Source of the DNA: Escherichia coli
GTDB taxonomy: Bacteria; Pseudomonadota; Gammaproteobacteria; Enterobacterales; Enterobacteriaceae
NCBI RefSeq assembly: GCF_003991155.1
Contig: NZ_CP031293.1
Strand: one strand, 5' to 3'
DNA: 64,000 nucleotides
Below are positions 51,001 through 57,000 of the stretch, in pieces. Positions within the stretch are counted from its first letter, which is position 1. Every line of letters begins with the position of its first letter. The position numbers are program-made.

Positions 51001-54000
51001 CTTTTTGATTCTGGACTGGTATTTACATTTCTAAAAACAGGCATAAAGTGAACACATGTTTGATTTTGAATATATGTTCAACTCTATCTGCGTGGTCGAA
51101 TAGAAATACAGATTTATTATTTTTGTGTTTTTAAATGTCAGGAGATGTGCCATGTGTGATAAGGAATACATCATCACAATTGGCTCTGCCAATATAGATA
51201 TAGCCGGATATTCGTATGCCTCCTTAAATTATGCTGATTCTAACCCGGGGAAGATTAAATTCACGCCCGGAGGTGTGGGGCGTAATATTGCACATAATCT
51301 TGCTCTGCTGGGTAAAAAATCATGGCTGATGTCAGCTGTGGGAGATGATTTCTACGGGCAATCATTATTAGCACAAACGACTCAGTCCGGCGTTAATGTT
51401 GATAAATGTCTGATTGTTAATGGAGAAAATACCTCAAGTTATTTATCACTTCTCGATAAAACCGGTGAAATGTTGGTGGCAATAAATGACATGACGATTA
51501 GTGAACATATTTCAGCTGAGTTTTTATCACAGCATATTGATTTTATTCAGGGAGCGAAGGTTATTGTTGCAGACTGTAATATCAGTGAGTCAACACTTGT
51601 CTGGCTACTGAATAATGCAGGTAAGGTTCCGGTATTTGTTGACCCGGTATCTGCATGGAAGTGTGTCAAAATTCGTGAACATTTAGCACAAATTCATACT
51701 CTCAAGCCCAACCGGCTTGAAGCAGAAACACTCAGTGGTATTTCGCTTTCAGATCGGAATGATGCTGAAAAAGTGGCGGTATGGTTCCATACACATGGTC
51801 TGAATCGCCTTGTGCTCAGCATGGGGGGGGATGGAGTTTATTACAGCGAACTGTACGGAGCCAGCGGCTGGTCGCCGCCAGTAAAAACACAGGTGGTGAA
51901 CGTTACGGGGGCAGGGGATGCCATGATGGCAGGGCTGGCTTCCTGCTGGGTTGATAATATGCCATTTATTGATTCCATTCGATTTGCACAGGGGTGTTCA
52001 TCAATGGCGCTGGCCAGTGAGTATACCAATAATCCTGAATTATCTGTTGCTAACGTTAAAAGCTTAGTGGAGAAACAGAATGTCTGAAATAACCATTTCT
52101 TCTGAATTACTGCAAATTTCACCGGAAGTACAGGATGCCATTAACAGTAAAAAACCTGTTGTTGCTCTCGAGTCAACAATTATCTCACATGGTATGCCTT
52201 TTCCTCAGAATGCTCAGACGGCTATTGAAGTCGAAGAAACTATACGTAAACACGGAGCAGTACCAGCCACCATTGCCGTTATTGGCGGTGTAATGAAAGT
52301 CGGGTTAAGTAAAGATGAGATTGAATTACTGGGTCGCGAAGGACATAACGTTACCAAAGTCAGTCGCCGGGATTTACCTTTCGTTATTGCTGAAGGAAAA
52401 CATGGTGCAACAACGGTAGCTTCAACCATGATTATTGCTGCTCTTGCCGGAATTAAAGTTTTTGCCACAGGAGGAATTGGCGGCGTTCATCGCGGTGCAG
52501 AACACACTTTTGATATTTCAGCCGACCTACAGGAACTGGCACATACTAATGTCACCGTGGTTTGTGCAGGCGCGAAATCCATTCTCGATTTAGGGTTAAC
52601 CACGGAATATTTAGAAACATTTGGTGTACCTTTAATTGGCTATCAGACAAGATCATTGCCGGCATTTTTTTGCCGCACCAGTCCGTTTGAGGTCAGTATA
52701 CGTCTGGACAGTGCAAAAGAGATTGCCCGCGCGATGGCAGTGAAATGGCAAACCGGCCTGAACGGTGGTCTGGTTGTTGCCAATCCGATTCCGGAAGCTT
52801 ACGCCATGGCGGAAGAGAAAATTAATGCAGCAATTGACCAGGCCGTAAAAGAAGCGGAAGTGCAGGGCATTACCGGTAAAGAAAGCACACCGTTCCTGCT
52901 GGCACGGGTGGCAGAATTAACCGGTGGTGACAGTCTGAAATCAAATATTCAGCTGGTATTCAACAACGCAGTTCTGGCCTGTGAGATAGCAAAAGAATAT
53001 CAACAAATTGTCTGATATAAATGAACGGGCAGTGTGAGGTCGCCCGAAATTACCTGAACCAGATTCCGTGTCTGGTTCAGGTATAAGGGGAGAGCATTAT
53101 GGACATCATGAGAAGTATAGTGGGAATGGCAGTATTGCTGATAATTGCATTTCTACTATCAGTGAATAAAAAACGTATCAGTTTACGTACCACAGGAGCT
53201 GCACTGGTTCTTCAAATCGCGATTGGTGGGATCATGCTCTATTTCCCCCCGGGGAAATGGCTGGTTGAACAGGCTGCACTGGGCGTACATAAAATTATGT
53301 CTTACAGTGATGCGGGCAGTGCCTTTATTTTTGGCTCTCTGGTAGGGGACAAAATGGACGTACTGTTCGATGGGGCGGGTTTTATCTTCGCCTTCCGTGT
53401 ACTTCCTGCCATCATTTTTGTTACAGCGCTTATCAGTCTGCTGTACTACATCAGAGTGATGGGGGGGCTTATCCGTATTCTGGGGGGGATTTTTCAGAAA
53501 GCTCTGAACATAAGTAAAGTTGAGTCATTTGTGGCAGTAACGACAATTTTCCTGGGGCAAAACGAGATCCCGGCAATTGTAAAACCGTTTATTAATCGTC
53601 TGAATCGTAATGAATTATTTACTGTCATCTGCAGTGGGATGGCTTCGATTGCCGGTTCAATGATGATCGGCTATGCCGGGATGGGGGTTCCGATTGACTA
53701 TTTGCTGGCGGCGTCGTTGATGGCGATCCCGGGGGGGATCCTTTTTGCCCGTATTCTGAGTCCGGCCACAGAAGAATCAAAAGTCACTTTTGAAAATCTT
53801 TCTTTCACTGATACTCCTCCCAAAAGTGTTATTGAAGCAGTGGCCAGCGGGGCGATGACCGGGTTGAAAATCGCTGTCGGAGTTGCAACGGTAGTGATGA
53901 CCTTTGTTGCTATTATTGCTCTGATTAACGGTATAATCGGTGGTATCGGAGGCTGGTTTGGTTATGGTAATATTACCCTTGAGGGCATTTTCGGCTGGAT

Positions 54001-57000
54001 TTTGGCTCCCCTTGCGTGGATCATGGGCGTTGACTGGGCGGATGCTTCACTGGCAGGAAGTCTGATTGGTCAGAAGCTGGCAATTAACGAATTTGTTGCT
54101 TATCTCAATCTTTCACCCTATTTACAGCCAGGCAGTACGCTTGATGTGAAAACCACCGCAATTATTTCTTTTGCACTGTGTGGTTTTGCCAACTTTGGCT
54201 CCATTGGTGTGGTGGTGGGTGCCTTTTCAGCCATATCACCTCAGCGTGCACCTGAAATTGCACAACTGGGCATGCGTGCACTGGCGGCGGCCACCCTGTC
54301 AAACCTGATGAGTGCGACTATCGCTGGTTTTTTCATTGGGCTGGCATAAAAAATACAATCCCGGGTGTTACCCCCGGGATGTTTTTAACAGATATTGCGC
54401 GTTATTAACGGAAAGTGTTGGGTTATTGATGCTGGTGCTGGCACGTGACAGTGCTGCACATGCCATCGCAAAGTGAGCACTTTCCTGGAAACTACTTCCT
54501 TCCAGAAAACTGTAAAGCAGACCTGCCATAAAGCCATCATCTGCACCAAAGCTGTCCACAACGGCATGAACGGGCGGTGTGAGCAGAAATTGTTCTCCCT
54601 CTCTTTGGCTACAGAAAACGGATTCATCTCCCATCCAGACAAAAATCTGTTGCACACCCTGCTGATGTAGTGCGTTCACTGCGGTGAGTAGATCGGTCTC
54701 ATTGTTGACAGGGGAACCCCATAATATCTCCAGTTCTTTTTGTGTGGGTTTCAGGGTATGGATATGCGGAAGCCAGTTTTTTACATTAACAGCCTTAAAT
54801 TTCGACACTGTATCAATAAAAACGGGAATGCCGTCAGCGACCGTAAAGATCCATTCAAGGGCGGCAGGTGTCAGATTACAGTCAGCCAGCACCACGCCAG
54901 CGTGACGGATTAACATACGTGAGGCGTCCAGCAACTGCGGCGTCAGTTGTTGCAGAATATGGGTATCATTAATCGCCATCACTGTTTCTGCCTGTAGGTC
55001 GGCGATGGAGACATAAGTTGAAGTATTTTGTCCGTTCAGTCGAATACAATTGGTGACATTAACGCCGGCCAGGCGGGTCTGCTCCAGTAATGTTTCGCCA
55101 TAAAAATCATTGCCTACAGCAGATATCAGATGCACATTGCGGCCCAGAAGGGCGAGATTATGGGCGATGTTGCGTCCGACACCTCCGGCAGAGCAGTAAA
55201 TACTGCCCGGACTGGAGGATTTCTGTGGATAATGGATATCCGCCACCCCACGGATATCCATGTTAATCGCCCCAAGAACAACACAGTATTCCTGTTCTGT
55301 CAGGATGTAGCCTTTCCCTTTAATCGCACCTTTGCGCATCAGATCCATAATGTGTGCAGCAACACGCGACCGACTGATTTGTAAAATCTCAGCAATTTCA
55401 TTCTGCTGGATCAGTGGGTTGTGACGCAGGATCCTGAGTATCTCTTTTTCTCTGTTGTCCATGATTATGCAACTGCCTGTTCGGTTTTTCGTCAGCGATC
55501 ATCAAAGTAAATAGCTTCGTTTTTCCCGGTGAACGTGAAGCTAGGGGAGATTATACTTCCGGATGTTCATTCAGGGCAGAAGAATAATACATCAGTTAAT
55601 TTTCTGTTAGTACTTTGTAGTCGAATGTTTGGGGAGTGTGTCTGAATGACAGCCAGATGGAATGACTTTTTGTAGCCAGGTCATGACTACGACTCATACG
55701 CTATTCTTAATTCTTATTTCTTTCCATTATACGCAAGTATTTTTAATTTAGGTTTATTACTATAATTATATTCACTTTGTCTTTATTCACTCTGTTTTTA
55801 CTTACTCTCTATCTTTACTCATTCCATTACTCTGACCCTCACCCGATTATACTTACTCCCTTCCTTGTCTAATCTTCATTGCCACCATTATCATGGTATC
55901 CACCTTCTCCACCTTCTCCACCTTCTCCTTCATTCAATCATAACTACTGTAATTCATACGATACTCAGATAAGTTATTTTACTACGTTGTTGCTAATATC
56001 TACCTGTTATCAGTCTTCACTGAAACAGCAATTGATTTTAGTCATTATCCATAATGAACTGTATTGACTTAACGATGATTGTTGTTGACCTGAAGTGTTT
56101 TAACTATTCTGGTAAATATCAATACTTCTGTCATCACTGATTAACTGGATGTTTACTCTTTGATAAGGTATCCATGATTTCGTCATGTTTAACAGCGCAG
56201 GATAAACAATGAAATTAACAGAGTGAATTCCTGATTATATTTGTTCGTTTCTGATTATCTTGTATGTTAAACAAAATGAAAATTATCCATCCATGGTATA
56301 TTTTATTCTGGTACCGTGTACCCGTTAACGCTCATGTTTTGAAGTGAGTTGTTTTTAACAGATTAAATGAGAGTGTATGATTTTATCAGGTTACAGATAT
56401 GTGTTGGCCTTGTACACGTTTTTGCAGACTCACTGAGAGCAAGTTTGTAGTTTATGATGTGATTGGTCGCAATATGTTTCTTAATCTCCAGGTAGTGGGG
56501 TTTTAGCTCGTATTTTACAGTATTTCGTGATGTTTTATTGAGTCTGTATTTTCTTTACTCCTCGTTTATCTCATCTCTTTAGCTAATACCATCAGATAAT
56601 CCATTTCTTTCTGCATAATGCTGCGTATCGTTAATAACCCGTCGTATCCATTCTGCTACAGCATGCCTGATAAATACCATCTGTAAGTTATTACCGTTAT
56701 GAGCGAAAGCATTAATTCGTTCACAGAGCTTAAAACATCATTAACTTTCAGGAGTCATCAACATGCCTAAATCTTACACACCAAACTGGTTTTTTACCGC
56801 TTTACTTGACAATCACATCAATCAAATGCTGGCACGTTATTCCTGCCTGCGAGCTTTACGGATGGATTTCTTCTACAGGAAAGATACGCCTGATTTCTTA
56901 CAACCTGATCATCGCTGGCTTGAATTGCAGTTGCGTATGATGCTGGAACAGGTTGAACAATTTGAAAATATCGTTGGCTTCTTCTGGGTGATTGAATGGA

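Follow-up and report, generated by a model that had tools for sequence, protein, structure and literature searches.

The 64,000-nt stretch analysed here (the window; contig NZ_CP031293.1 of Escherichia coli assembly GCF_003991155.1) contains, within a chromosomal island, a four-gene cassette related to the pseudouridine (Psi) catabolic locus of E. coli K-12: paralogues of psuK, psuG and psuT in one orientation and, on the opposite strand, a paralogue of yeiI, whose product joins a helix-turn-helix (HTH) to a PfkB-type kinase domain (Table 1). The four open reading frames are intact at the coordinates given by the initial annotation, and the 8-nt overlap it described between the kinase and glycosidase genes is present (ATGTCTGA), with the psuG start overlapping the psuK stop and a GGAG motif 8 nt 5' of the psuG ATG. 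The HTH-kinase gene had been placed divergently from the operon; the two are instead convergent, tail to tail, with 18 nt between the transporter stop at 54349 and the yeiI stop codon (54368-54370), so they share no divergent promoter region. The module does lie between YagK/YfjJ-family genes, as had been stated: the left flanking gene (48912-49643) matched PF11726 (E 6e-36), and the right one (56763-57329) carries the RefSeq name YagK/YfjJ protein but scored only 20.7 bits against PF11726, below the gathering score of 25.8.

Table 1. Features of the pseudouridine cassette and its surroundings, in window coordinates. Strand: +, operon strand; -, opposite strand; (.), none given.
Feature	Position	Strand	Basis or remark
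Hexapeptide acyltransferase gene	50164-50616		Between the left YagK gene and the module; island backbone; absent from the initial annotation
Variable cargo slot occupied by the cassette	50621..55849	(.)	Backbone homology to the E. coli 042 island ends at 50620 and resumes at 55850
Captured psuK-psuG-psuT / yeiI cassette, whole extent	50972..55611	(.)	Homology to native loci and to the Salmonella copy
CRP-like site TGTGATCCTGTTTTCA	50978..50993	+	21-sequence alignment; CRP binding inferred from consensus
Promoter-like site TTTACA-16 nt-TAAAGT	51022..51049	+	Consensus scan; hexamers on conserved cross-species columns
Candidate operator, two 12-nt palindromes	51050..51079	+	Directly 3' of the -10
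Palindrome GAACACATGTTT	51050-51061	+	Candidate operator, first half
Palindrome GAATATATGTTC	51068-51079	+	Candidate operator, second half; 18 nt from the first
psuK paralogue, pseudouridine kinase, 311 aa	51152..52087	+	NF007355, identity, key residues
psuG paralogue, pseudouridine-5'-phosphate glycosidase, 311 aa	52080..53015	+	PF04227, identity, catalytic residues
14-bp hairpin, psuG-psuT spacer	53051..53083	+	RNAfold; native loci have a hairpin in the same place with another sequence
psuT-type CNT nucleoside transporter gene, 416 aa	53099..54349	+	TIGR00804, identity
Bidirectional terminator-like hairpin	54358..54380	(.)	23 nt, G+C-rich, T-runs on both strands
yeiI paralogue, winged-HTH + PfkB (pseudouridine-kinase-like), 364 aa	54368..55462	-	NF007416, domains, identity
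Candidate -10 TATAAT of island yeiI	55550..55555	-	88 nt 5' of the ATG; no good -35; weak

Comparison with database models for PsuK, PsuG and PsuT, the check proposed in the initial annotation, matched all three products to pseudouridine-pathway families, and the kinase and the transporter passed curated cut-offs. The kinase scored 649 bits against the NCBIfam pseudouridine-kinase (EC 2.7.1.83) equivalog NF007355 (cut-off 540; positions 1-310 of 313) and matched the structures of the E. coli pseudouridine kinase EcPUKI (PDB 7vkp and 7vtg; E 1.6e-166). Its scores against the ribokinase models TIGR02152 (125 bits, cut-off 300) and NF008353 (99 bits, cut-off 341) are below both cut-offs; the enzymes are not a generic ribokinase beside an unrelated hydrolase, and the pseudouridine interpretation therefore stands. 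Crystallography and mutagenesis of EcPUKI defined a set of Psi-binding and catalytic residues (N14, D16, S30, Y97, N112, M114, N143, K170 and D256), in which Ser30, Asn143 and Lys170 are the hydrophilic hallmark trio reading the uracil-Psi base and Asp256 is catalytic (PMC9061257). All nine are identical, at the same positions, in island PsuK.

Island PsuG aligned over the full length of the Indigoidine_A/PsuG domain PF04227 (444 bits, cut-off 25.2; profile positions 1-291 of 291); no NCBIfam model matched it, so NCBIfam provides no equivalog-level support. In EcPUMY, the E. coli glycosidase (PsuG/YeiN), Lys166 forms the covalent adduct, Glu31 is the proton donor, Asp145 is a metal ligand and Lys93 and Ser147 bind phosphate, with Thr130 also part of the set (PMC10761123). 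The island protein keeps 6/6 of these residues (E31, K93, T130, D145, S147 and K166), and both enzymes are probably active. Identities to the K-12 proteins, in essentially ungapped alignments, are 79% for PsuK, 90% for PsuG, 90% for PsuT and 75% for YeiI. RefSeq/PGAP names the genes pseudouridine kinase, pseudouridine-5'-phosphate glycosidase and CNT nucleoside transporter, and calls the YeiI-like gene just "sugar kinase".

The transporter matched the NupC/CNT model TIGR00804 with 507 bits (cut-off 442), and its protein is closer to PsuT (90%) than to the paralogue NupX (84%). At the DNA level, the gene is psuT-like only in its first ~350 nt, the 5' third, and is afterwards equidistant from psuT and nupX because the two K-12 genes are more alike in their 3' part. 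A chimeric CNT gene formed by psuT x nupX recombination, with deletion of yeiL-rihB, was considered and rejected, as the compact layout is native in many genera. In their 3' two-thirds, K-12 psuT and nupX share 81-85% mutual identity and only ~73% with the island gene; in the first 350 nt, the island gene and not nupX is the nearer relative of K-12 psuT. This pattern in K-12 suggests gene conversion between the chromosomal paralogues. Judged by profile, identity and residue matches, the two enzymes are clear PsuK and PsuG family members and the transporter is a PsuT-type CNT.

A module serving a different substrate, such as another C-nucleoside or a methylated pseudouridine, and so widening the host's range, might be suspected from the substantial divergence of the kinase and YeiI from the host copy and from the annotation of K-12 PsuT itself as only a "putative" pseudouridine transporter. 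We consider this very improbable. All PsuK residues contacting uracil-Psi are the same, including Ser30, which reads the Psi-specific N1, as is the PsuG catalytic set, and the island proteins are no more diverged than ordinary Citrobacter or Enterobacter orthologues.

The initial annotation had described the cargo as paralogous to the chromosomal psu/yei cluster, and this was borne out. An intact chromosomal psuK-psuG-psuT-yeiL-rihB-nupX-yeiI-nfo locus lies 1.7 Mb away in the same genome; the island set is thus a genuine second copy. The window belongs to the E. coli chromosome and matches ~12 complete genomes at 100% identity over 24 kb. One of these, AR Bank #0349, has ilvB at the start of the window and setC, in the selC region, next to the island. 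No tRNA that could mark an attachment site was detected in the window by ARAGORN. Among 5,426 complete E. coli genomes, the chromosomal psu locus is present in 5,391 and the island module (at least 80% coverage) in 385 (~7%), 376 of them with at least 99% identity; only 21 genomes share the context of this window. Strain M217 has the island beside yghD/gsp (pheV region), not at setC, so that this cassette and backbone occupy at least two sites on the chromosome; most of the module carriers listed are, judging from coordinates, probably also at yghD/gsp. No plasmid copies were found in PLSDB, where the single match proved to be a mislabelled chromosome with the chromosomal allele. The chromosomal psuT-psuG-psuK segment is itself polymorphic relative to the K-12 reference (80-90% identical in 1,194 genomes, 90-95% in 1,024), which is unusual for a near-universal locus and suggests divergent alleles or recombinational replacement.

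Origin of the cassette was traced by comparing island YeiI with one genome per bacterial species (GTDB representatives), which returned 20 loci, and mapping all genes in them. A native compact layout, nfo> yeiI> <psuT <psuG <psuK <fruA, occurs in 13 non-E. coli species representatives, including Citrobacter amalonaticus, Citrobacter sp., C. sedlakii, three Enterobacter, two Buttiauxella, Kluyvera, Kosakonia, Phytobacter ursingii and Escherichia albertii. In E. coli and a few others, an insertion of nupX-rihB-yeiL separates yeiI from psuT, and the compact layout is probably ancestral. The island block has the four genes of the native compact loci in the same orientation, and so is a copy of that layout and not a rearranged E. 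coli locus. Homology to the native loci covers 50972-55487, from ~180 nt 5' of psuK, promoter region included, to 25 nt 5' of the yeiI ATG; nfo and fruA, which border the block where it is chromosomal core, fall outside it. Compared with K-12 psuKGT and yeiI (b2160, b2164-b2166), the island has the same four families, gene order and relative orientation, the psuK/psuG overlap, the promoter/palindrome architecture and all known active-site residues. K-12 differs in having nupX-rihB-yeiL between yeiI and psuT and yeiI after nfo, whereas the compact island copy, without nfo and fruA, shares 70-80% nucleotide identity with it at saturated synonymous divergence (dS) and sits on a mobile island.

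The best native identities, in the C. amalonaticus group, are 85-86% for PsuK, 93-94% for PsuG, 94% for PsuT and 81-82% for YeiI, with ~81% nucleotide identity. No GTDB species representative exceeds ~81%, which is too distant for a donor to be named. Closest of all is a second mobile cassette, from Salmonella enterica (GCA_010633625.1, contig AAOFJQ010000019, and Logan contigs), with 84.9% nucleotide identity over 50972-55611 (PsuK 88.6%, PsuG 94.9%, PsuT 92.8%, YeiI 85.2%). It has the same left end (50972) and shares ~125 nt upstream of yeiI that are missing from native loci. Its vehicle is different, with no YagK/YfjJ backbone: RelB/ParE, genes for an MFS transporter, a GDPD protein and a porin, and insertion sequence (IS) elements precede the cassette, and genes for a pyrimidine-nucleoside phosphorylase and an IF-2B-family (sugar-phosphate isomerase-like) protein follow it, divergent from psuK (locus L029 on that contig, 14826-17577). 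The Salmonella region looks like a larger mobile nucleoside-salvage unit.

Between the island and Salmonella copies, the ratio of nonsynonymous to synonymous divergence (dN/dS) is 0.09 for psuK, 0.04 for psuG, 0.06 for psuT and 0.13 for yeiI, with dS between 0.56 and 0.73. In comparison with K-12, dS reaches 1.4 or more, or is saturated, and recent intragenomic duplication is ruled out by the saturation against the host-type copy. The low dN/dS at this dS indicates that selection has maintained the four genes, including yeiI, in a distinct mobile lineage, old by comparison with E. coli. That bears on the idea that the module is a silent passenger, unexpressed and without benefit, as might be imagined for an AT-rich region (42-49% G+C) typical of H-NS-silenced island DNA, in a host that already has the pathway and with a yeiI lacking its native promoter context. 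We regard this as improbable, given the strong purifying selection over dS ~0.6-0.7, the four intact reading frames with their predicted promoter, operator and terminator carried over, and the retention of related cassettes on mobile DNA in two genera.

Both sides of the island backbone (genes for a GTPase, DUF932, antirestriction and YeeU/CbtA proteins, the YagK/YfjJ genes and the acyltransferase) also occur in islands without the cassette. The same slot holds an HTH pseudogene and an H-NS-family gene in E. coli 042 and ireA between IS elements in XH993; the slot is thus variable, and the psu cassette is one of the alternatives that can fill it. A transposon or IS vehicle at the borders of the cassette was sought and rejected, as there are no IS ends and no terminal direct or inverted repeats around 50400-56200. 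The native block would have been excised without nfo and fruA to become cargo in the variable slot of a CP4-like E. coli island. Considering gene content, divergence and layout together, the cassette is very probably a self-contained second set of the enterobacterial genes for pseudouridine catabolism, acquired horizontally.

Alignment of the region upstream of psuK in 21 sequences (the island, K-12 and 19 other loci) gave a conserved order of CRP-like half-site, -35/-10 and double palindrome, in which the left half of the CRP-like site, TGTGA, is invariant. The palindrome core AACANNTGTT lies upstream of the psu operon in 21/23 enterobacterial loci keeping psuK, including the window, K-12 and the Salmonella copy. 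The HTH-kinase operons of Yersinia and Pasteurella have it as well, in short upstream regions not alignable to the enterobacterial promoters; it was not found upstream of those of Aeromonas, Fusobacteriaceae and Proteiniborus. If an operator, it would be confined to Enterobacterales and Pasteurellaceae. Within the 16-kb K-12 locus, the palindrome pair is found upstream of psuK only. Relative to the predicted promoter, its placement is that of a repressor operator.

At the other end of the operon, the terminator-like hairpin is common to both convergent genes and overlaps the last yeiI codons. The candidate yeiI -10, with a predicted start near 55543, falls in the ~125-nt block that the island shares only with the mobile copy of Salmonella; native yeiI follows the end of nfo by 2-6 nt and is presumably driven by nfo. 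The psuG-psuT spacer (53016-53098) has two hairpins conserved across Enterobacteriaceae, the second of which, in the island copy, has a different sequence with the same but stronger fold and no T-run. It may act within the operon as an element for processing or stability. No Rfam families were found in the spacers and untranslated regions, the sole match being a sub-threshold, chance-level snR41.

The fourth gene is more unusual. Island YeiI scored 732 bits against the equivalog NF007416 (cut-off 561; positions 1-361 of 362), consists of HTH_24 (PF13412) and PfkB (PF00294) domains, and is identical to K-12 YeiI in the recognition-helix region. In Yersinia, Pasteurella, Aeromonas, a Fusobacteriaceae metagenome-assembled genome and Proteiniborus, an HTH-PfkB gene lies directly 5' of psuG (overlapping or within 1 nt), and these five psuG operons have no other PfkB gene nearby; there the fused protein must therefore be the pseudouridine kinase. 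More broadly, operons of HTH-PfkB, psuG and sometimes a CNT gene occur in Yersinia, Serratia, Pasteurellaceae, Aeromonas, Fusobacteria and Clostridia. Their fused proteins share the YeiI-like architecture and the Psi-binding residues. Unlike the island, K-12 and Salmonella loci, which have a separate PsuK, these operons have the fused protein as sole kinase, with canonical NXXE and GAGD motifs. Both are catalytic motifs of the ribokinase family.

Alignment of 15 HTH-PfkB proteins with two PsuK showed the ribose ligands Asn14/Asp16, the base-reading Ser30/Asn143/Lys170 and Tyr97 to be invariant. Asn112 is replaced by Ser in three Fusobacteria/Clostridia proteins, and Met114 by Thr in E. coli/Salmonella YeiI. 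Two further changes (PsuK numbering) are found only in the YeiI group: N187 to T/S in NXXE and G255, the second G of GAGD, to D. The group comprises E. coli YeiI, island YeiI and the Salmonella mobile YeiI, all three with T, and Affinibrenneria, with S. A separate HTH-less PsuK is present in 3/3 YeiI-group loci read (island, K-12 and Salmonella), a count that covers loci other than that of Affinibrenneria. In PsuK, Asn187 is near the Mg2+ sites (PMC9247573). Going by architecture, context and residues, YeiI-type proteins are HTH-fused pseudouridine kinases, of which the enterobacterial clade has altered catalytic motifs.

YeiI has no known function (PMC9061257; PMC12506659), and our full-text search found no paper on a regulator of the psu operon. 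Its gene is found with psuKGT in all the enterobacterial loci examined, as well as in both mobile cassettes. This linkage, the genomic context in other taxa and the residue pattern make YeiI the obvious candidate for the regulator that binds the palindrome, and probably that regulator. The residue pattern would fit a duplication followed by division of labour, with PsuK as the enzyme and YeiI as a Psi-binding sensor with impaired catalysis. The most novel interpretation, to which we give a probability of roughly 40%, is that YeiI was an HTH-fused kinase whose catalysis became impaired after HTH-less PsuK arose, that it now acts as a Psi-responsive repressor of psu, and that the cassette is a self-regulating mobile Psi unit. 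By analogy, HTH domains are fused to enzymes or enzyme-like ligand-binding domains of the pathway under control in the enzyme-repressors BirA and NadR and the sugar-kinase-like ROK repressors NagC and Mlc, as proposed here for YeiI, although the folds and families are unrelated.

In the scheme proposed, the PsuT-type CNT would import pseudouridine, PsuK would phosphorylate it to pseudouridine 5'-phosphate, and PsuG would split the C-C glycosidic bond, releasing uracil and ribose 5-phosphate. The psuK-psuG-psuT genes would form one operon with its own promoter, CRP-like site, psuK/psuG translational coupling and terminator. YeiI would sense Psi or its phosphate and repress the operon by binding the double palindrome over the predicted transcription start near 51056. 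Binding of Psi closes the PUKI dimer via Ser30 of the neighbouring subunit (PMC9061257). As a speculation, the same closure of the kinase-fold dimer in YeiI would respace the two N-terminal winged helices and release the double palindrome. Regulatory cross-talk between the island and chromosomal copies is likely, since the recognition-helix region is identical and the operators are similar.

YeiI might instead be a working second kinase for Psi or a related modified nucleoside, and not mainly a regulator, with the palindrome bound by another factor. It retains the Asp256 equivalent, Lys185, Asp164, Glu190 and the whole Psi pocket, its relatives in the five psuG operons described above must be the pathway kinase, and YeiI-type proteins are already named "pseudouridine kinase" in some sources. 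We think this unlikely: the N of NXXE and the second G of GAGD, invariant elsewhere, are changed in the YeiI group, and a separate PsuK is encoded in the three loci read. Purifying selection acts on the HTH domain (dN/dS 0.13), whose recognition-helix region is the same as in K-12 YeiI. Furthermore, a K-12 psuK mutant is described as unable to use Psi despite an intact yeiI (Preumont 2008, as cited in PMC12506659).

Several observations nevertheless weigh against the account of the cassette as a working second copy regulated by YeiI. With its catalytic Asp and Lys185, YeiI could still be an active kinase, and the palindrome could belong to a regulator other than YeiI. The right half of the CRP-like site is degenerate and weaker in the island copy. 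Island yeiI may be poorly expressed, because the native upstream nfo and any nfo promoter have been lost and only a weak promoter candidate was found. Finally, the almost identical sequence of the module in 376 genomes reflects its recent spread and is uninformative on selection within E. coli.

Elsewhere in the window, an IS3 element occupies 47189-48736 (transposase 47435-48597, with a programmed frameshift) and replaces ~1.15 kb, including a hypothetical gene found there in M217 and 042. At 61399-64000, a tnaB-tnaA (+ tnaC) operon lies between fragments of melA, a beta-glucoside phosphotransferase system gene and IS66/IS110 remnants; being outside its K-12 neighbourhood, this tna operon may be relocated or a second copy. 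The region from nepI to yicS (15391-32391) contains a 9,966-nt inverse autotransporter gene, iatC, a HilA-like regulator gene, eilA, and IpaD/SipD-, SipB- and SycD-like type III secretion genes. Between ilvN and uhpA, a segment of 34-36% G+C (1001-4057) with two hypothetical genes (1857-2339 and 2618-4057) resembles a small insertion of foreign DNA. In M217, a glycyl-radical propanediol-utilisation microcompartment locus, grpI-grpS, lies downstream of the psu island (L001, 30722-44601) and is interrupted by a group II intron-like reverse transcriptase/maturase.

As a paralogous catabolic cassette, the module is routine, already annotated island cargo and unsurprising to a specialist. No paper on an island-borne second psu locus was found in our full-text search; the pseudouridine kinase of the TosR paper was considered as an island copy and proved to be the chromosomal c2701. 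Mammals are described as excreting pseudouridine in urine without degrading it (Preumont 2008, as cited in PMC2928814), and in human bladder colonisation an E. coli bacteriuria re-isolate from a colonised patient had raised yeiC and yeiN expression (PMC2928814). An extra, separately regulated mobile cassette could thus be a small niche-fitness factor.

If YeiI is the repressor, the cassette would be a complete, self-regulating mobile unit for Psi catabolism, spread by different vehicles in E. coli and in Salmonella, and it might be advantageous in urine or other host fluids rich in Psi. The co-mobility of the four genes, the HTH-kinases preceding psuG in other taxa and the altered YeiI motifs also yield, as a by-product, a concrete and testable function for YeiI, the product of an uncharacterised K-12 y-gene.

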